A stretch of 42,575 nucleotides of DNA from Promethearchaeota archaeon (GTDB lineage Archaea; Asgardarchaeota; Lokiarchaeia; Sigyniarchaeales; SOKP01). This document shows positions 3,573 to 15,580 of the stretch, piece by piece (position 1 is the stretch's first letter; each line of letters opens with the position of its first letter). The stretch lies in the NCBI GenBank assembly GCA_048940645.1, contig JBHLOI010000031.1, positions 1 through 42,575 on the forward strand, in the 5' to 3' direction. A program made the translations under genes and the position numbers. The notes under the pieces are model-generated. The model was given only the letters and a program-made list of their open reading frames with translations, did not search any database and was not told the DNA's origin.

Positions 3573-3597
3573 AAAAATAATGTGATATCTGAAAAAA

Positions 3598-4497
3598 ATG
3601 TCGCTTGAACGAAGAAGAGAAACTAAAGGAGCTGTAAAAGAAGAAGTGTTACAAGATAGCAAATTTAGGCGTTTAGATTTTACTCCCTTGGAAAAAAAGA
3701 AAGAAACAAAAGGGAAAAAAAAAGAAATTCAGATTTTTGTTGATGAATTAACAGAAATTGAAGAAGATGTTTTAAAAATTGCACAAGATATTTTAAAATT
3801 AAAAAGGTATGATGCAGATTTTGATTTAGAAGTTGAAACTGAGGCAGAATTACAAAAATACCCAATAATTGAAAAATTATATGCCAAATGTATCGCAAAA
3901 TTAGCATACAAAAAAGGATATAGTAAAGAGGATATTTTCTTAGCTATAAGAGGTTTAGAAGAAAAAAACTGGATTGTTACAAACGAAAGAAGGACAAAAT
4001 TAGAAATTTTAAATAATGAAAAATTAGTCTCAATACTTAACTTTATAAAATTAAATCCTGGTATTCATGCAAGAGATGAAAAGATCGAAAATGAGTTGAA
4101 TATCACGAGAACTCCATTTTTAAAACATATTATGACTTTAGAGAGGTTTAAACTTATACGTTCAAAGAAGCTGGGAAAATCATTACATTACTTTTTAACA
4201 GATGTCCCAGAAAGTTTTGATGAATATAAAGTTATATTTAGCAATCCCCTAATTATTGAAATCTTAGAAGAACTTGTTAAAGATGAGAGTATTGCAATAT
4301 CTAAAATTGGAGAAAATCTAGATGTTTATTCTGGAACCATTCAATATCATATTAAGAAAATGAAAGAGATAGATTTAGTAAAATCAATTAAAAAACAAAA
4401 CAATCAAACCATTCATTTAGTAAATATTGAATTATTAAAGAAATATAATGAAATTTTTAAGGAACCTAACTTCTCTAAATTTTTGGAAGGGTTATAG
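3598..4497 (+). CDS. Winged-helix transcriptional regulator (tandem ArsR-like wHTH)
   Basis: ILNFIKLNPGIH...HIMTLERFKLIRSKK.G..HYF and ISKIGENLDVYSGTIQYHIKKMKEIDLV. Confidence 0.75.
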   Translation: MSLERRRETKGAVKEEVLQDSKFRRLDFTPLEKKKETKGKKKEIQIFVDELTEIEEDVLKIAQDILKLKRYDADFDLEVETEAELQKYPIIEKLYAKCIAKLAYKKGYSKEDIFLAIRGLEEKNWIVTNERRTKLEILNNEKLVSILNFIKLNPGIHARDEKIENELNITRTPFLKHIMTLERFKLIRSKKLGKSLHYFLTDVPESFDEYKVIFSNPLIIEILEELVKDESIAISKIGENLDVYSGTIQYHIKKMKEIDLVKSIKKQNNQTIHLVNIELLKKYNEIFKEPNFSKFLEGL

Positions 4498-4515
4498 GTT
4501 ATAATCAAAGATAAA

Positions 4516-5403
4516 TTAAGTATCAATCAATACTGATTTTATTCTTGGTAAAGATTCAATTACGACTTTTATGGCATCCTCAATCCCTTTCTCCATATTG
4601 GGATGTATCTCATTAGATTTAAGTAAACCATATTGAGCATGTCCAGGCAAATCAGACACTGAAAGAATCGAAACGGTTTTTAAGTTAAAAAGTTCTCCCA
4701 ATAAAAATAAAATTGAAGATTCCATATCAATGGCATTAATATTGGCTGCTTTAATGGCTCTTATGAATTCGTATGTTTCACAGAATAAAGCATCTGTAGT
4801 CCAAAGATTAACTTCTTTAATCTTATTAGTAGTTAATGTTGATAAACCTTCATTTAACAATATTTCTTTTAAAATCTCGTTTGGTTTAGATATAAATACA
4901 GTTTGATTTCCAGTTAGTAAATTATGTAATACAGATAAAGGATTTTTAACAGATTCCAATTTATTTGATAAAGCAGGATATGTACGAATATATTGAGGAG
5001 TAGTTCCATCATCACAATAAGCTGATTTTGGAATGAGTATATTGCCTATATCAATTTCATTAGTTTCGTCCTGAATACCTCCACATAAGTCAATTCTTAT
5101 TATAATTTTTGTTTTACATCGTTTTAAACTTTCTACTATAAGGCTGACATTGGGGCATCCAATTTGAGACTGAATGATACTTACTCTTACTCCATTTAAA
5201 AAACCATTATAAACTCTTCCGTGCACAATTTTATTTTGAAGTTTTTTTATTAATTTTTTCATAACCATTTTTACTGCTGGTAAAATAACTATCTCATTTA
5301 GGTTTGAAGAAGCAGTCTCTAAAATCATTCTAACAATTTTATCATCAATACTTATAAATTTTAATCCAAAATTCAGTAATTCACTTTTGATTTTATTGAG
5401 CAT
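4516..5403 (-). CDS. Nucleoside phosphorylase (PNP/UDP family 1)
   Basis: IGCP, IRIDLCGG, DDGTT, WTTDALFCET, DMES and VSD motifs. Confidence 0.85.
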   Translation of the reverse strand: MLNKIKSELLNFGLKFISIDDKIVRMILETASSNLNEIVILPAVKMVMKKLIKKLQNKIVHGRVYNGFLNGVRVSIIQSQIGCPNVSLIVESLKRCKTKIIIRIDLCGGIQDETNEIDIGNILIPKSAYCDDGTTPQYIRTYPALSNKLESVKNPLSVLHNLLTGNQTVFISKPNEILKEILLNEGLSTLTTNKIKEVNLWTTDALFCETYEFIRAIKAANINAIDMESSILFLLGELFNLKTVSILSVSDLPGHAQYGLLKSNEIHPNMEKGIEDAIKVVIESLPRIKSVLIDT

Positions 5404-5700
5404 TTTCTATACAAAAATTTATATTTTGAATATGAATTAACTTAGATCTTATAATATTTAAAGATAATAAGAATTGTATCAAAATTGCTAAAGAAGATTA
5501 AACTGATTCAGTGGAATTAATCTTAATAAAAACTTCTTATTTGTATTACTAATTTAATCCTATTTATTTATAAATTATAAGTAGTTCCCTAATTACATGA
5601 TTACTTATATTTTTTAAGAACAATTTTTAATATCTTAATAAAATACATTTATCTATAATAGGAAATTAATAAAATAGTTCAAAAGATTTGGTACTTTAAG

Positions 5701-6990
5701 ATGAGAAATCGATTTATCATTGACAATAAGATTACAAATGAATTTGTTGAGACTTACACTAAAACAACATATCGGATCATAGGAAATAACAAACATTCTG
5801 CGATCAAACCATGTCATTGGCTTGAACAGAGATTAATGACAGGAAGAGATAATAGAAATTGCTATAAAGGAGTTTTTGGGGTTAAAAGTCATAGATGTTT
5901 ACAGAATACACCATCTCTACCTTTCTGTAACCATCAATGTGTTTTTTGTTGGAGAGATATTGAAGTAGGAGGGCTTGGAAACGAGTTCATAGTTAAACCA
6001 GACGATCCCAAAGAATTAATTGAAGAAATGATCCGTCATCAACAGGATATTATTAAAAATCACTTACCATTAAGAAGATATCTTGATAATTATGAGATAA
6101 TGATCAATTTGCTTCATTTCATGGTTAAAGCTAATACAGACCAAAATCTAAATTCCCTTTCAAAAATTCTTCAAGTTAGTAAGAATAAAATTGAAAGGGC
6201 TCTAAATCTCCTGAAAAATCAACACTTTATCAAACCAACTGATGAAACATTAAAGAGTTTCAGAATAGATGAAGAAATCTCATGTTGCATAGATTCTCGA
6301 GAAGAAATTGAAACTTTAATTAATAGAGAATTAACTAATCCTGATGATATTATGCAAACGCATAGTGAGGCGATGTATCCAAATCATGCAGCCATATCTC
6401 TTGACGGTGAACCATTACTTTATCCATTGATGAGCGATCTTGTTAGAGAATTCCGAAATAATGGTATGACTTCCTTTATTGTCACTAATGGTACTTTACC
6501 TAAAAAATTAGAACAATTAGATTCATTACCAAGCCAATTATATCTTACTTTGCCAGCACCAGACGAAAAATTATATAAAAAAATTTGCCGTCCAATGATA
6601 AGAAATGGTTGGAATAGGATCATAACAAGTTTAGACCTACTAGAATCATTATCTTGCCGAAGTGTAGTACGATTAACTGCTGTTAAAGAGTTAAATTTGA
6701 ATGAGAATTTAATTAAAGATTATATTAAATTAGTAGAAAAAGCGAACCCAAACTTCTTTGAATTAAAGGGCTTCACACTCCAAGCAAAAGCTTTACTTAT
6801 TAAGAATAGGTTAAAAAGTGAGACACCAATTCAAGACTATTTTCCAGAATATGATTACTTAGAAAAAATTGCTCATAAATTTGAAGTAATGGGTAATTTT
6901 CCATTAATTTATAAGAACAAGTCAAGTAGAGATTTCTTGTTTGCCGTTAATTGGGAAAAAGGTAAAGACCCCATAATTAAAAATCCATAA
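5701..6990 (+). CDS. taw1: 4-demethylwyosine synthase (radical SAM), with internal insertion
   Basis: HSAIKPCHW, CYK...SHRCLQxTP, CNHQCVFCWR (CxxxCxxC), HAAISLDGEPLLYP, FIVTNG, QLYLTL. Confidence 0.92.
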   Translation: MRNRFIIDNKITNEFVETYTKTTYRIIGNNKHSAIKPCHWLEQRLMTGRDNRNCYKGVFGVKSHRCLQNTPSLPFCNHQCVFCWRDIEVGGLGNEFIVKPDDPKELIEEMIRHQQDIIKNHLPLRRYLDNYEIMINLLHFMVKANTDQNLNSLSKILQVSKNKIERALNLLKNQHFIKPTDETLKSFRIDEEISCCIDSREEIETLINRELTNPDDIMQTHSEAMYPNHAAISLDGEPLLYPLMSDLVREFRNNGMTSFIVTNGTLPKKLEQLDSLPSQLYLTLPAPDEKLYKKICRPMIRNGWNRIITSLDLLESLSCRSVVRLTAVKELNLNENLIKDYIKLVEKANPNFFELKGFTLQAKALLIKNRLKSETPIQDYFPEYDYLEKIAHKFEVMGNFPLIYKNKSSRDFLFAVNWEKGKDPIIKNP

Positions 6991-7035
6991 ATTAATATTG
7001 GCAAATAAATGGTTCAATATTAAGAGGTTTTTCTT

Positions 7036-8385
7036 TCACTTTTTTATGAGTGTTTGAGTAAATCTTTTTAAATATTCTATTACAGATATTTCGTTATTAC
7101 TAATCATTTGAAATATTTCTTTAAATTGATCTAAATTATTTCGGAGGATTTCATTAAATTTTTCAGAATCTAGATAATGATAAATTACATTTTTTACATT
7201 CAATTTTTCTTTATCAAACTTAGCTTCTTCTGGTTCAAACAAGTTAACTTCACCCTTGAATTGCTTTATATATGAATATAACTTTTCACAAAAATCATCG
7301 AATTCTTTTTCATTATATTCATGACCAAGCAATCTATCTAAATTATGCTCTCTTAGGTCCCCCCAATTTACATCCTTACCTTTTATTGGAATAATTTGAA
7401 TACTATGTTTGCGTGCTAATTCAAGTTCATGCACACAATCTATTGAATTGAACACGGATTTATTAGACGCAAAAAACAATAAGAGTTGGCATTTTGGAAC
7501 TGTTTCATTCATAAAATCATCAATATTTCCTGTTAAATCTGTTTCACAGTAGAATGCACTATATATTTCCTCTTGGTTCTGCAAAAATTCAGAAATTTCT
7601 TTTATGTGAAAATAATCAAAATCGGCAACAGCATGACTAAGAAATATATTTATACTTGCTTTTTGTTGGCAGAATTTTAATATCGATGGCAGATCTCTAG
7701 TTACTAATTTTTCCCATTCATCTTTCCAAAAGTTATTATCCAAATGAAGAAAGTTTAAATTTTTCAATTTCCATATCGTCCAAGGTAATTCGGATAAATT
7801 GTTATTACCCAATATTAATGATTCAATATCATTAAGTTCACCTATTGATTCAGGAATGCTATTCAATTGATTTGCTTTTAAATTTAACTTTTTAAGAGAG
7901 TTTAAATTACCAATATTATTAGGCAGATTTTTTAAATTATTTTCACTCAAATTTAATTTTTTTAATTTTTTTAAATTTCCAATAGATTCGGGTAATGATT
8001 TTAATTGATTCTGCTCCAATGTAACATTTTTTAGAAATTCTAATTTTCCGATAGATTCAGGAATTGAATTTAATTTATTCATACTTAAATTTAATTTTTT
8101 AAGATTTCTTAATTCCGATATTGATTCAGGGATTGTTTCTAATTTATTATCCGCTAAATTTAGCTTTTGAAGTGATTTAAATTTTAAAATTTGTTCTGGA
8201 AAGTTTGTTAATCCACAATTAAATAACCCAATTCCAATTACCTTACCGTTTTTAACCTCAATACCACATGTATCCATACTAATTTCATAAACTTGGCCAA
8301 AAGTTTTCATAATTATACTTTCTAAATTACAACAAGTCTTGATATCTTCAGAATTTAATCCTAATTTTTCATACTTTTCACTCAT
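7036..8385 (-). CDS. Leucine-rich repeat-TIR domain protein
   Basis: About 7-8 23-aa LRRs (LKKLNLxxNxLxxIPESIGxL); TIR from about aa 247 (IFLSHA...LLLFFAS..S..CVHEL..A...IIPI) with Glu320 at the catalytic position. Confidence 0.88.
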   Translation of the reverse strand: MSEKYEKLGLNSEDIKTCCNLESIIMKTFGQVYEISMDTCGIEVKNGKVIGIGLFNCGLTNFPEQILKFKSLQKLNLADNKLETIPESISELRNLKKLNLSMNKLNSIPESIGKLEFLKNVTLEQNQLKSLPESIGNLKKLKKLNLSENNLKNLPNNIGNLNSLKKLNLKANQLNSIPESIGELNDIESLILGNNNLSELPWTIWKLKNLNFLHLDNNFWKDEWEKLVTRDLPSILKFCQQKASINIFLSHAVADFDYFHIKEISEFLQNQEEIYSAFYCETDLTGNIDDFMNETVPKCQLLLFFASNKSVFNSIDCVHELELARKHSIQIIPIKGKDVNWGDLREHNLDRLLGHEYNEKEFDDFCEKLYSYIKQFKGEVNLFEPEEAKFDKEKLNVKNVIYHYLDSEKFNEILRNNLDQFKEIFQMISNNEISVIEYLKRFTQTLIKK

Positions 8386-8418
8386 TTTTTTATTTCAACC
8401 CTTAATTTAAGAAGGAAA

Positions 8419-11400
8419 TTAAATTAGATTTATTAACTTCTTGAAATCTTCTTTTTCTATAAAATTTTCAGCTTCTCGTCGTGTATCAAACATAGTATAC
8501 CCCGCAATTGCAATTATTAATGGATCTCCTTCACGAGTAGGTTTCTTAATCCAATAACCAGAAGAGGTTAGCATTTTATTTATGATATCTCGATCCATAT
8601 AATTAAAAATAAGCTCACCTACATTAGGAACTAAAGGAGTACCAAAAGGAATTAAAATGTCAACTTTTTTCTTAGGAGCAGCAGGTTCAATAGTGACTGT
8701 TGCATTAATTTCGTGTAAAATCTTATAATATATTTGATTTGCTGAGAATAAATCACCAGCACCACTAATAATATGAACCTTTAATCCTTCTGATTTAATC
8801 ATTGATCGAATCTTCTCATTAATTTCGGAGATTTTTGTATCAAATTTTTTTTTTTCATCCAAACGGTTCAATATTTCAAGAATATAAGAAATCTTTGATA
8901 AATAATCTCTAATATTAAAGATATGATGTTCATATGGTTCTAATAATTTAATTGCTTCATTATAATATTGAAATGCATTATCAAGTTTATTATTTAACTC
9001 AGACACTTCAGCGAGCCATTGTATTTCAGCGGCTGCCCACGATTTATTAGTTCCCATAAATGCATCAACAAGGATTTTTCTAACTTCATTAGCTTTATCA
9101 TATCTATTTGATATTTCGTGTTTATCTTGATTTGTCGCAAATAAAGCAGCAGCCTTCCATTGCCAAGAAGCTAATTCGACAGTACATTTGTTTTCAAATT
9201 TATCAATATTAGTTTTCAAATCGTCCATTAATTTGTTGTATAATTTTCCATTTTTAAAACGATAATCAGATGAATCTATTTTCTGAACTTCTAGAAGATG
9301 ACAGCCTATATTATAATAATCTGTAGCTGTAAGAAGATTTTCGGATTTTTCATGATAATTGCCAATAAATAGGTATAATTTAGCGATTGATTCAATATTA
9401 TTTCGCGCATAAAAATCAAATACAAGACGCTCGAGATCAGGAATTAAAGTTCTCTGAATATTTAGATCCACACTATTTAAATATTCAAGCACCTTGTCAA
9501 TATATTCTGTATTATCAATATATTCAGTTGCAGAAAGAAAATAGAATCGTTGAAGTACATTCTTAAGAAAAATTTTCAACCTTTTAATATTCGAAATCTC
9601 TTTTGCTCTTTCTAAATTTTTATTTAGTTCTACTTCAATTTTGTTAATCAATTCTAAAGTAAACTCATCATCATATTTTTTTTTGGGAGTGACTTCGTAA
9701 TATATGTCATGAGAAAGAGAATAAATATAACTATCTTTATCTCCAAGTATACCTCCATCGCCTAAGATAATCTCATCTTTTTCTTCTATAATTAATTTAT
9801 CTTTTAGTAATTCATGTAATATCTCGTCAATACTAGATATATCTACATTTAGCATATTCTTTAAGGTTGTTTTTATAAGCCATAATGGCGGATTTAATTC
9901 AAATGTCTTATTAAGACTAACAATACTACTCCAAATATTTCTTTCTGCTTCTGTTCTTATGTTATACACAAGATTTTTAACTGTGTCGATGATATCATCA
10001 CTAATTTGAACATTTTCCATATCATCTGTAGTAAATTGTTCCTTCCGATTTTTTTCTAAATAAAGTAAAAAATTATCTGCGAAAATTGGATATATCCATC
10101 CTCTACTCGAGATTCTCTTTATTAGGGTGTTATACGCAGGTTTTGTAAAATTATCATTAGATAAATTATGAATTTCAAAAAATTTTTCTACTGATTCATC
10201 TGTTAAGCTTATTCCTTCAAGCCAAGTTTTCTGCACTTTCCAATGGTGTGGTATCTTTCCTTCTTTAATGATGCTTTTATATGATTTTGTGCGTAAGAAC
10301 ATTAAAACCCTTAAATTTTCCTTTAACTTTGTTGGACAACCAGATTCAAATAAATTATGAATGATTTCTATTAAATTTTCAACATTCATATCAGATCTAC
10401 TTTGTTCTTCATCAAGGACCAATACGAGATGACGATGTTTTTCTGCCAATGTTTTCAATTCCTCATGCATTCGCAATATAAATTCTGTGTTATTAATTCC
10501 CTTTAGAAACCTTTTATCTATTTCAACGAATTTGATATCTCTATCATTTTGAGATAACAAATATTTTAAGTTAGTCTTTCCCATTCCTGCAGAGCCTAAA
10601 ATGATATTAAATTCATCATCTTGAATTTTTTTAAGTAATAAATCTTCAATTCCGAAATAAATAAGATTATTAATAATTTTTGGATCTACAACAATTGGTA
10701 TAATAATAGGATCGTTTTTTAAAGCTCTTAATTGAAATGGTTGTTCAATTGGTTGTATAATTAATTTTTCAACATTATTTTTTAATTCATTACTAAATGA
10801 AAAAGGTATAGTGTTTGGATCTCCAAACATCAAAAAAGATGCCCAAGCATGTGAACTTTTAGAATTATATAATTCATTTTTAGATTCAAGCATACATTCT
10901 CCTATAGTTTTATCTTCTTGTAATAAATTTTGGTAAAAAGAATAAGCGAAATTTATAGCATCTTTATTATCAATTGGCCATATAGAACCGATAAATGTTT
11001 TTGTTCCTGCCTGAATAAATGCTTCTGCCAATCCAGATACTTGCTTTTCTCCTTCCAATTCTATATTTGCTTGAGCACTTTCACAAGCATTTATAAAAAC
11101 AATTTCAGGTAAATGTTCAGTGTATTTCGAAATCTCTTTTGCAGTTATTTCTTTATCGGCTAGTTTTATTCCACTCTTTTCTGGCATTTTTTCATCAAAA
11201 AAAGCATGACCGGAATAATGAATAATGTCAAATTCATTTTTTTTCATTAATTCGATTATATTTACGGTCGTAGCTTCAGATCCTATTAATGTTGATGTTT
11301 TTATATAACCTTGGTTGATTGCTGTTTTTAATTCTAACTTTATATTTTTAATTTCTTCAATAGAAGATTCCAAATCACCTGACGGGTCACCAATAAATAA

Positions 11401-11862
11401 TATGTGAATTATATCTTTATCTTTTTTCTCAAATTCAACACCTATAATCTTGCCAGTAATAATTCTTCCGATTGAGTTATTTAAACATGCAGGTTTATTA
11501 TCAATAGAAAGTAATTCCCAGGGAACACCTGGATCATTCGTTAAAATTAATAAATTATGATATTTTTCAAGTAATTCCTTTAAATCCTTTACACATTGTA
11601 TTCCCATTAATTTTTGTATTGAAATACCGAGTTTTATTAAAAAGTTGTGCATATAATCTTCAGATTCGGTTAAAAGCTCACCAAGAAGTATCTTTTTTCG
11701 AATATCCATTACCTTATTAATTACTTTTTCTCTTTCATCTTGAGTATTTAATCTTTCATAGGGTTTGATTATGGTCATAGATGGTGGTTGAATTTTAAAT
11801 ATATATGAGCCTTTAAATCCATCTATATGGAATTGGATTATATCGTTCATTTTGATTCCCAT
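8419..11862 (-). CDS. CHAT (caspase-like) protease-P-loop NTPase-TPR-like helical repeat protein
   Basis: CHAT motifs VPWELL, FDIIHYSGH (His219), VFINACES (Cys260), GLAEAFIQAG, FIGSIWPI, WASFLMFGDP; Walker A GSAGMGKT (423-430); Walker B LVLVLDEE; C-terminal TPR-like helices (AFQYYNEAIKL). Confidence 0.88.
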   Translation of the reverse strand: MGIKMNDIIQFHIDGFKGSYIFKIQPPSMTIIKPYERLNTQDEREKVINKVMDIRKKILLGELLTESEDYMHNFLIKLGISIQKLMGIQCVKDLKELLEKYHNLLILTNDPGVPWELLSIDNKPACLNNSIGRIITGKIIGVEFEKKDKDIIHILFIGDPSGDLESSIEEIKNIKLELKTAINQGYIKTSTLIGSEATTVNIIELMKKNEFDIIHYSGHAFFDEKMPEKSGIKLADKEITAKEISKYTEHLPEIVFINACESAQANIELEGEKQVSGLAEAFIQAGTKTFIGSIWPIDNKDAINFAYSFYQNLLQEDKTIGECMLESKNELYNSKSSHAWASFLMFGDPNTIPFSFSNELKNNVEKLIIQPIEQPFQLRALKNDPIIIPIVVDPKIINNLIYFGIEDLLLKKIQDDEFNIILGSAGMGKTNLKYLLSQNDRDIKFVEIDKRFLKGINNTEFILRMHEELKTLAEKHRHLVLVLDEEQSRSDMNVENLIEIIHNLFESGCPTKLKENLRVLMFLRTKSYKSIIKEGKIPHHWKVQKTWLEGISLTDESVEKFFEIHNLSNDNFTKPAYNTLIKRISSRGWIYPIFADNFLLYLEKNRKEQFTTDDMENVQISDDIIDTVKNLVYNIRTEAERNIWSSIVSLNKTFELNPPLWLIKTTLKNMLNVDISSIDEILHELLKDKLIIEEKDEIILGDGGILGDKDSYIYSLSHDIYYEVTPKKKYDDEFTLELINKIEVELNKNLERAKEISNIKRLKIFLKNVLQRFYFLSATEYIDNTEYIDKVLEYLNSVDLNIQRTLIPDLERLVFDFYARNNIESIAKLYLFIGNYHEKSENLLTATDYYNIGCHLLEVQKIDSSDYRFKNGKLYNKLMDDLKTNIDKFENKCTVELASWQWKAAALFATNQDKHEISNRYDKANEVRKILVDAFMGTNKSWAAAEIQWLAEVSELNNKLDNAFQYYNEAIKLLEPYEHHIFNIRDYLSKISYILEILNRLDEKKKFDTKISEINEKIRSMIKSEGLKVHIISGAGDLFSANQIYYKILHEINATVTIEPAAPKKKVDILIPFGTPLVPNVGELIFNYMDRDIINKMLTSSGYWIKKPTREGDPLIIAIAGYTMFDTRREAENFIEKEDFKKLINLI

Positions 11863-11967: not shown

Positions 11968-12612
11968 TTAAGATTTATCTGTTTTAGATAAATATAGATG
12001 AATAAAATTATTTATTTTACCCAGATTTGTTTTTTTCAGAGCAGAAAATTCTAAATAAGGGATTTTAATTTTATTTTGATTGTTGATAAAATCATCTAAA
12101 TTCGTTATATCAATTCTATAGTATTTAGCGTTCTCTATGAAAAAGGTAATTATTCGTTTTTTATCAATATTTGAAACTTTATCTATCTTATTGATAACTA
12201 TTAGGAGTGGAATGCTAAATTCTTGTATAAACTTTATCAATTCAAAACTCAATGGAATTGTTATTTGGCTTTTAATAAAATATTTAGTAATTTCATCTTC
12301 AATTCTTAGAATATTAATAACAACTAAAGCAAGAAAATAGTCGAAATGATGCTTTTCAATATGAGTTACAATTTGCTGTTTAATGTGTTCTTGTCTTCTA
12401 TGACTCGAATGCCTGATATATCCAAAACCAGGTAAATCGATAATTTTATAAGGCAATTGAGGTTGTTCAACTTGTTTTATTAATAATGTACTTCCAGGAT
12501 CTTTACCAGTTTTTCCTTTATATTTACTTGGTTGAGGGAGTAAAAGTCTTGTTATTGAGCTTTTTCCTGCATTTGAATTCCCAATAATCAATAGAGAAGG
12601 TTTTACTTTCAT
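11968..12612 (-). CDS. engB: EngB/YihA-family GTP-binding protein
   Basis: GNSNAGKS, PGST, DLPGFG, NKIDK, FSA. Confidence 0.85.
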   Translation of the reverse strand: MKVKPSLLIIGNSNAGKSSITRLLLPQPSKYKGKTGKDPGSTLLIKQVEQPQLPYKIIDLPGFGYIRHSSHRRQEHIKQQIVTHIEKHHFDYFLALVVINILRIEDEITKYFIKSQITIPLSFELIKFIQEFSIPLLIVINKIDKVSNIDKKRIITFFIENAKYYRIDITNLDDFINNQNKIKIPYLEFSALKKTNLGKINNFIHLYLSKTDKS

Positions 12613-13792: not shown

Positions 13793-14359
13793 ATGGAAAA
13801 AATCAAGTATAAATTTAAAATCCCTATAATCGGAGATGGAGCTGTAGGTAAAACATCACTTATTGAAAAATATACTAAAGGAATATTTCAAGAAGAATAT
13901 ATCTCTACTCTAGGAGCACAATTTACTCAACACGAGGAATTAATTGATGGAATTGAATTCAAACTTATTTTTTGGGATATTGCTGGCCAACCTGCATTTG
14001 AGAGGATGCGGCAAAAATTTTACTCAGGTAGTAATGGTGCTATCATTGTCTTTTCACATTCACCCGATGAAAGAAAAAGTTTTGAGAGTGTAGATAAATG
14101 GATCTCTGAAGTTAGAGAACATTGCGGTAGAATTCCAGTTATTCTATTTGGAAATAAAATAGATTTGGTAAATGAGGAAGTTTTAGCTACAAATGGAGAT
14201 TTAGATACATCCGATGCTAATATAGAAAAATACATTAAAGAACATGGAATTGTGGATTATTTCAAAACAAGTGCATTAACAGGTCAGAGAGTAAATCAAG
14301 CTTTTCATACATTAGTAAAAAAAATACAGTCTTTGGAAGAATTTTTAAGAAATTTATAA
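13793..14359 (+). CDS. Ras-superfamily small GTPase (Rab-like), copy 1
   Basis: [25 protein letters not shown], KTSA. Confidence 0.92.
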   Translation: [188 protein letters not shown]

Positions 14360-14420
14360 AGTAAAAGAAAAAGTAGATATGATTTAATTTGAGTATTTAT
14401 TACTATTGTAAGGAATAAAG

Positions 14421-14951
14421 ATGGCCGAAATTAAATTCAAAATAGTAGTTGTTGGAGATGCAGCAGTAGGAAAGACATCCTTAATCCGAAAGTATACAAA
14501 GGGAGCATTTGAAGAGGATTATATTGCTACACTTGGTGCACAATTTACTCAGCATGAGGAATTAATCGATGGGGTAAATTTTAAACTTATTTTTTGGGAT
14601 ATCGCAGGACAACCGACATTTGAAAGGATGCGACAAAAGTTCTACTCTGGTAGTAGTGGAGCAATCATAGTTTTCTCTCATTCATCTGATGAGACAAAAA
14701 CTTTTAAGAGTGTAGATAAATGGCTCTCTGAAGTTAGAGAACATTGCGGTAAAATTCCAGTTGTTCTATTTGGAAATAAAATAGATTTAGTCGATGAGGG
14801 AATATTAGCTACGGATGAAGGCTTAAAAACAAGCGATTCTAATGTTGAAAAATACATTAAAGAAAATGGTTTTATGGGGTATTATAAAACCAGTGCATTA
14901 ACCGGTCAGGGAGTAAACCAAGCTTTTCATATGTTAACAAAAAAGATATAA
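14421..14951 (+). CDS. Ras-superfamily small GTPase (Rab-like), copy 2
   Basis: [25 protein letters not shown], KTSA. Confidence 0.92.
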   Translation: [176 protein letters not shown]

Positions 14952-15040
14952 AAAATAACTCAAATTTTTATTTTCTATTTCTAAAGATTTAAAAAATCCG
15001 ACTATTACTATAAATTCAAATATTTTGATAGGTAATTTGA

Positions 15041-15580
15041 ATGGCTGATATTAAATTTAAGATAACAGTAATTGGAGATGCTGCGGTAGGGAAAACTTCT
15101 CTTATTAAAAAATACACTAAAGGTGAATTTCAAAAAGAATATATTTCTACTCTTGGAACTCAATTTACTAGACATGAAGAAGTAATTGATGGGGTTTCTA
15201 TTGAATTGATTCTCTGGGATATAGCAGGACAAGCAGCATTTGAGGTTATGCGGCAAAACTTTTATACTGGTAGCAGTGGAGCAATAATTGTTTTTTCACA
15301 TTCACCTGATCAAAGAAAAAGTTTTAATAACGTAAATAAATGGCTCTCCGAAGTTAAAGAGCATTGTGGGAATATCCAGATTTCACTATTTGGAAACAAA
15401 ATTGATTTGGTAAATAACGAAGAATTGCAAACTTCAGAATCTCGTGATTCCAATGTAGAAGATTACGTGAAGGAACATAATTTTCTAGGTTACTATAAAA
15501 CCAGTGCTTTAACAGGTCAAGGTGTAAATGATGCCTTTTATACGTTGGCAAAAAGACTATATTCTTTAGGAAATTATTAG
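15041..15580 (+). CDS. Ras-superfamily small GTPase (Rab-like), copy 3
   Basis: [25 protein letters not shown], KTSA. Confidence 0.92.
   Translation: [179 protein letters not shown]

Follow-up and report, generated by a model that had tools for sequence, protein, structure and literature searches.

Toll-like receptors and SARM1 carry a repeat domain N-terminal to their TIR domain, and a repeat-held, Glu-dependent NADase is the logic of SARM1; CHAT and catalytic TIR domains both act as defense effector domains. In protease-STAND modules, the protease cuts a latent effector encoded by a neighboring gene, as caspase-Avs12 does with EACC1 in Ktedonobacter and trypsin-Avs2 with MBL in Vibrio (10.1101/2025.11.14.688446). 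The survey of Evans et al. (10.1101/2025.11.14.688446) covers ten families of such partners (MBL, alpha/beta hydrolase, Pepco, EACC1, PCaspase, gasdermin, CATASP, MPE, CalpT, and Csx30); the terms "TIR," "LRR," and "CHAT" are absent from its text. Type IV Thoeris (Rousset et al., 10.1101/2024.10.24.620036) joins, near defense systems, a short TIR protein to a protease that has neither a STAND module nor TPRs and that responds to N7-cADPR made by the TIR.

We analyzed a 42,575-nucleotide stretch of contig JBHLOI010000031.1 from a Promethearchaeota archaeon (the window), in which two genes on the same strand, 33 bp apart, lie between taw1 and engB. ORF coordinates and matches to TIGR03972 and NF003255 agree with the original prediction on this arrangement (Table 1). 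Gene A encodes a CHAT protease, a STAND NTPase, TPRs, and a conserved C-terminal domain, in that order, and gene B an N-cap with seven LRRs, a TIR domain, and a helical tail. Together they are a real, mobile, and undescribed two-gene cassette that looks like a putative antiviral or cell-death module. The true start of gene A, judged from its homologues, is likely Met5 (position 11850), which would give a protein of 1143 aa.

Table 1. Positions of the two cassette genes, their domains and key residues, and the flanking host genes in the window
Feature	Position	Strand	Description
taw1/TYW1	5701-6990	+	TIGR03972, E 1e-78; flanking host gene, outside cassette
Gene B	7036-8385	-	449 aa ORF
Gene B three-helix tail	7039-7245	-	residues 381-449, 69 aa; common to many unpaired LRR-TIRs
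Gene B TIR domain	7246-7656	-	residues 244-380; TIR_2
Gene B E320	7426-7428	-	TIR catalytic Glu
Gene B LRR solenoid + linker	7657-8385	-	residues 1-243; LRR profile E 1.7e-26; seven repeats in model
Gene B W202	7780-7782	-	only in paired copies
Gene A	8419-11862	-	1147 aa ORF
Gene A C-terminal alpha/beta domain	8422-8796	-	residues 1023-1147, 125 aa
Gene A TPR-like solenoid	8797-9672	-	residues 731-1022; candidate sensor
Gene A STAND NTPase module	9673-10710	-	residues ~385-730
Gene A Walker A K429	10576-10578	-	
Gene A CHAT module	10798-11862	-	residues 1-355; pseudo-protease half + caspase-fold half
Gene A C260	11083-11085	-	CHAT dyad Cys
Gene A H219	11206-11208	-	CHAT dyad His
engB	11968-12612	-	NF003255, E 3.5e-29; flanking host gene, outside cassette

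The rest of the window is occupied by housekeeping genes (Ras-like GTPases, an EF-2-type GTPase, IF2, UvrAB, STT3, and enolase), and profile scans and PADLOC detected no defense island or mobility gene near the cassette; the neighbors at homologous loci are housekeeping genes too. Since the GC content of the cassette (0.26 to 0.28) is close to that of engB (0.25) and of the genome (0.30), the cassette is not a recent foreign insert. Matches in a sigma-70 promoter scan were at chance level (35 vs 37.8), the sigma-70 model being unsuited to archaea. Elsewhere in the window, three tandem Ras/Rab-like small GTPase genes (13793-15580) adjoin the EF-2-type GTPase gene, where relatives have one or two, and TYW1 (5701-6990) contains an internal insertion of ~100 aa with a winged-helix signal (weak Lrs14/Sta1 matches) that is kept across the genus.

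A caspase-fold protease with intact His and Cys had been proposed for gene A, and the CHAT profile match (E 1.2e-31) bears this out. Residues H219 and C260 are invariant in 17 homologues, as are G423/G426/G428/K429, D484-E485-E486, R524, P592, and H718. The caspase-hemoglobinase fold with its His-Gly and Cys dyad places gene A among the CHAT/clan CD proteases, and D163, which is invariant within a PxxDL motif like that of separase, presumably confers Arg/Lys specificity. The P-loop NTPase called at the outset stands as far as K429 and the motifs are concerned, with the correction that it is of the STAND type. It has a Walker B DEE, sensor-1 R524, the conserved P592, and a winged helix with H718. 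Foldseek searches with the gene A model returned 6mfv STAND-TPR (best, E 6.6e-10), SAMD9, Avs3, and Apaf-1 as top matches, and Atlas places residues 385 to 730 with STAND families at 0.93 to 0.96 (NPHP3_N/AAA_16/nSTAND3/NB-ARC/NACHT clusters). Motifs, Foldseek, and Atlas thus agree on the STAND NTPase superfamily, with HD1 (587-625) poorly modeled. The predicted TPR-like repeats were recovered as matches of the model to STAND-TPR and TPR structures; a Pfam scan of gene A left both the NTPase and the TPRs uncalled. Positions of gene A that are specific to pairs concentrate in the NBD and are inseparable from phylogeny.

The candidate repeat sensor of gene A consists of the TPRs and the C-terminal alpha/beta domain and is not a WD40 array. 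All parts listed in the original prediction were found, but it had passed over this conserved 125-aa domain and the 69-aa helical tail of gene B. The C-terminal domain is the most conserved part of gene A (64% identity to proteins encoded without an adjacent gene B), is confined to the gene A family, and has no Pfam match; a weak resemblance to an S-layer outer domain (0.83, under the 0.9 mark) is a lead only. Gene A, the TIR part of gene B, and the C-terminal domain had no significant match in PDB sequence searches, an EcoRV match (E 0.06) being dismissed as chance. No sequence-level relatives of gene A were found outside a small Asgard family.

For gene B, profile and model alike confirm the LRRs, which are similar to Leptospira/SHOC2/Rsu1-type repeats. 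The TIR domain was detected only when scanned alone (TIR_2, E 6.3e-6; 27.1 bits against a cutoff of 28); TIR_2 is matched in 13/15 gene B homologues, with a best E value of 1e-9, and the model has beta/alpha alternation in this region. Glu is found at E320 in all 57 of 57 aligned family members, so that profile and catalytic residue both support the TIR with catalytic Glu that had been predicted. Fold searches with the gene B model returned LRR matches alone, and the sequence has no evident signal peptide or membrane helix. No site in the alignments stands out as a cleavage site that paired copies alone possess. R230 was considered as such a site and rejected, K/R being common there in unpaired LRR-TIRs, and the basic residues at 241-242 likewise occur in unpaired proteins. 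Fusions in the TIR family of gene B (P0058, P0077, P0079) include a Ras/Roc GTPase with LRR, a GNAT acetyltransferase with LRR, and a multi-pass membrane domain.

Like the modules of Evans et al., gene A fuses an N-terminal protease with intact catalytic Cys to a STAND-repeat sensor and is accompanied by an adjacent, co-evolving second gene of toxic potential, with both linkage and tree congruence found. Unlike those modules, its partner is an LRR-TIR, outside the ten effector families, and lies downstream in an Asgard host; gene A itself differs in its complete, two-lobed CHAT and its additional C-terminal domain, and cleavage of the partner would follow by analogy. The effector-STAND-sensor architecture is shared with Avs, but the defense-island context of Avs is replaced here by housekeeping neighbors. 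PADLOC 2023, a release that predates the 90 families of PMC13581612, gave no Avs profile match to gene A, which may belong to a clade among those 90.

With type IV Thoeris, the cassette has in common two genes, one for a TIR with catalytic Glu and one for a caspase-fold protease with His and Cys. It differs in its 449-aa, 7-LRR TIR protein with a tail, in its 1147-aa CHAT-STAND-TPR protein, and in that each gene is also found alone. Gene B itself has no ThsB profile match. Csx29 (TPR-CHAT, Craspase), SAVED-CHAT, and separase differ in that the cassette has no CRISPR or SAVED link and its activation would come from the STAND switch. Gene B resembles Toll-like receptors and SARM1 in having its repeats N-terminal to the TIR; unlike Toll-like receptors it is soluble, with no transmembrane helix, and we claim no homology to them. 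Borvo (BovA) shares the CHAT domain and is the best PADLOC match of gene A (E 4.2e-9, 34 bits), but membership was rejected because the match spans profile positions 529 to 652 of 711 (124/711), the generic CHAT core. The cassette would work like a protease-STAND/effector module and is a member of neither type IV Thoeris nor Borvo. PADLOC returned nothing for gene B and no system fitting the pair, and we found no paper on the pair itself, or on LRR and TIR in Lokiarchaeia, in a search of literature other than subscription papers, in keeping with the earlier remark that the pairing is not a named system. CHAT and LRR are unmentioned in a survey of TIR signaling (10.64898/2025.12.03.692087), as are caspases and Avs in one of Asgard defense (10.1101/2023.09.13.557551).

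Gene A is followed by gene B at 17/17 Loki-type loci with readable DNA downstream of A, with gaps of 19 to 57 bp (duplicates merged: window, L071-L076, L078-L080, L082-L085, L087, L088, and L096). Homologues are thus neighbors over 54 to 91% gene A identity and at several sites, a check proposed with the original prediction that came out in its favor. At least five sites, spread over two families of the order, hold the cassette: besides taw1-engB, its neighbor is an M1 peptidase in L078, a beta-propeller gene in L071 and L088, and alanyl-tRNA synthetase in L083 and L085, and L087 represents a site in another family. In most members of the genus the taw1-engB interval lacks the cassette, so that a second check proposed at the outset was favorable as well; 19 members have both host genes adjacent and 10 have unrelated inserts. 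Carriers at this site are an 8-member clade and the distant L080, with empty relatives in between. The cassette transfers between genome sites as a unit. The idea that taw1-engB is a defense hotspot was rejected, the other inserts being HAD phosphatases or PadR plus methyltransferase. A pair of genes for a PadR regulator and a PEMT/ICMT methyltransferase inserts at the engB site whether the cassette is present or absent (L074:6546-7860, L077, L079, L136, L137).

Gene A was found in 6/400 Asgard species genomes, all from one sub-clade of the window's genus (6 of its 42 members), and reaches down to 46% identity outside GTDB representatives. NCBI labels of Odin, Hod, and Hermod on relatives at 87 to 90% clash with placement in the same genus and were excluded as host range. 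The cassette was not found in IMG/VR contigs. Six Helarchaeales-type loci carry a full-length gene A with intact motifs and no adjacent B (orphan A); three are named Helarchaeota, one has a ribosomal neighbor that maps to another order, and these hosts fall in the same class, Lokiarchaeia, as that of the window. Orphan loci have housekeeping neighbors, with synteny kept among them. Because A persists alone, an adjacent TIR is not needed by A. B-type TIRs occur in 67/400 Asgard genomes, nearly all of this order, often in several copies and mostly without A, and so pairing is not obligate. The term "two-component" is therefore too strong for the family as a whole.

The neighborhoods of orphan A contain several other genes. 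A co-oriented 213-aa gene lies 53 to 55 bp upstream in two Helarchaeales-type loci (L067:7304-7948, L068:7305-7946; 71% identical, no Pfam family) and may be a different partner of A or a neighbor by chance. A divergent gene of ~390 aa with no Pfam family adjoins orphan A at L069:6638-7810, L070:6608-7771, and L095:10-1182. In L070, a Peptidase_C14/C13 gene follows 5 kb downstream, and in L065 a 994-aa Cas12f1-like/TnpB gene (4851-7835) is directly upstream.

We examined 20 unpaired LRR-TIR loci, which have unrelated neighbors and no CHAT-STAND; among 10 neighbors scanned out of these 20 loci there was no known Thoeris effector. The same layout without such a protease nearby indicates that A is dispensable for switching on this architecture. 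The soluble LRR-TIR-tail family is expanded in Lokiarchaeia (L111-L134, L147-L166; ~440 to 1300 aa, invariant Glu), with as many as 7 matches in one genome; most members are lone genes, and some are tandem (L157, L160). In three genomes (L148:5735-11645, L150:5269-11553, L154:2948-8878), an LRR-TIR of ~820 aa is followed by co-oriented genes for a WD40 protein of ~795 aa and an isochorismatase/nicotinamidase-fold protein of ~290 aa, a set that is possibly a second LRR-TIR module; in L088, WD40 and isochorismatase genes are near the cassette on the opposite strand. Two TIR proteins with a receptor-like layout are encoded on contig C92 of the window's own genome, one of 1404 aa with a beta-helix and a periplasmic-binding-protein domain (L166:12932-17146) and one of 663 aa with a hydrophobic stretch ahead of the TIR (L166:5350-7341).

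Trees of gene A and of the TIR part of gene B match on the main paired clades, and pairwise identities of A and B correlate (rho 0.93, kin not being independent). Partner LRR regions fall on one side of a branch in 15/15 cases (support 80, which is modest and not starred), W202 is present in 15/15 paired LRRs vs 0/37 unpaired, and partners hold one length (443 to 457 aa where whole), unlike most unpaired copies. In L084 and L096, the TIR has drifted to 43 to 44% identity, and the LRR still groups with other partners. These data point to the LRR as the portion of B that is linked to A. A and B are likely functionally coupled. It is rather unlikely that they are two autonomous sentinels that are co-transcribed and move jointly, with A cutting host proteins and B depleting NAD+, or that the LRR of B is a brake or guard on A and not an output. 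Each gene does occur alone with all catalytic residues, and a single linkage event followed by co-transfer accounts for order, spacing, and tree congruence; against this, no Loki-type A lacks B in 17 loci spanning 46% divergence and at least five sites, and neither the constant length nor W202 of partner LRRs is shared by most unpaired copies.

A signal passing from B to A is unlikely as well. In this Thoeris-IV-like direction, B would sense through its LRR and its TIR would make an ADP-ribose-type signal; binding of that signal by the C-terminal domain or TPRs of A would lead to STAND oligomerization and killing by CHAT. Signaling from TIR to caspase is established (10.1101/2024.10.24.620036), lone LRR-TIRs fit a sensor role naturally, B-type TIRs weakly match ThsA/ThsB profiles (best E 1.5e-4, 1/15), and the most conserved part of A, its C-terminal domain, is still without an assigned function. 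However, that domain is equally conserved in orphan A, which has no adjacent TIR, and in L084 and L096 it has no change to match the strongly altered TIR and BB-loop. A diffusible signal also leaves the pair-specific LRR residue unexplained, and type IV Thoeris itself pairs a short TIR with a separate caspase that has no STAND.

Purifying selection acts on A and B alike (dN/dS 0.15 to 0.25). Values for the TPRs (0.11 to 0.23) are similar to those for taw1, with no sign of diversifying selection; those for the LRRs (0.20 to 0.35) are the highest among all domains, a point in favor of B as the sensor that signals to A. At two loci B is broken next to an A that is intact or unbroken, a pattern that a toxic output would be expected to produce: in L071 a stop codon interrupts the TIR frame, and in L084 the tail is missing. 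The stop in L071 (B homologue at 3580-4950) is a TAG at the conserved Trp341 codon and may be a sequencing error; a DUF4062 (TIR-like) gene of 1021 aa is 3 kb from this homologue.

Given that there is no defense island and no diversifying selection, we allow a small probability that the cassette is a host signaling or proteostasis module (stress, cell-cell contact, or development) with patchy inheritance and no link to viruses. Such a role is quite improbable in view of presence in 6/42 of the genus, gain or loss of the cassette at a single site by two lineages split by empty relatives, movement from site to site, and broken B, a pattern typical of conflict genes, and because CHAT and catalytic TIR are both defense effector domains. 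In its favor are the housekeeping surroundings in the window and at orphan loci, the conserved orphan synteny, purifying selection on the sensor repeats, vertical inheritance in the 8-member clade at taw1-engB, and the many non-defense STANDs, 198 of 589 clades being classed as defense (PMC13581612).

What is established for the cassette is its architecture, the integrity of its catalytic residues, purifying selection, and the linkage of both genes with their movement as a unit. We tentatively favor an Avs-like sensor-protease A and a dedicated latent TIR effector B that is cut by A, a reading that we rate at a little less than an even chance. A is placed upstream and B as the recruited output because A stands alone, the LRR is tied to pairing, and B is found broken. 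Points against this reading are the lack of a pair-specific cleavage site, the unpaired LRR-TIRs of like layout, the housekeeping surroundings, the TPR dN/dS values, the failure to find the cassette in IMG/VR contigs, and the fact that one ancient co-inherited linkage would also yield congruent trees. Going by its fold and by what is known of Avs, A would use its TPR and C-terminal regions to bind a trigger, probably a viral protein. The STAND, whose nucleotide-binding motifs are intact in sequence like the catalytic ones of the protease, would then exchange nucleotide and oligomerize, joining CHAT domains and turning on the His/Cys protease. In the weakest step, the LRR of B would dock to A and restrain the TIR until the protease cuts B, and the released TIR-tail fragment would self-associate, destroy NAD+ via E320, and arrest the cell. 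Complex prediction with A(388-1147) and B(1-240) gave no answer (score 0.00), which speaks neither for nor against docking. Where A has no B, in Helarchaeales-type hosts, it would act on other substrates.

What is known of Asgard immunity comes mostly from matching profiles of bacterial systems, and such profiles miss this cassette, which joins four modules of eukaryotic cell-death signaling: a caspase-fold protease, a STAND switch, an LRR, and a catalytic TIR. As two soluble genes in 4.8 kb, it is amenable to expression and mutation, and natural controls are available: A or B occurring singly, a pair whose TIR has diverged, and broken copies of B. Cleavage of B by A would make TIR a further protease-licensed effector; signaling from B to A would mean that a nucleotide gates a STAND-caspase via a domain of no known family. 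It is possible, with the balance leaning against it, that a Toll-ordered LRR-TIR and an apoptosome-like STAND-caspase form an Asgard circuit, either the first protease-licensed TIR NADase or a TIR nucleotide signal gating a STAND-caspase via a new ligand-binding domain; such a circuit would be a TIR-NLR-caspase cascade in prokaryotes, within the lineage nearest to eukaryotes. Lokiarchaeia are archaea close to the ancestor of eukaryotes; being rare and patchy, the cassette has little to say on the direct ancestry of eukaryotic pathways and represents a parallel assembly from the same parts.
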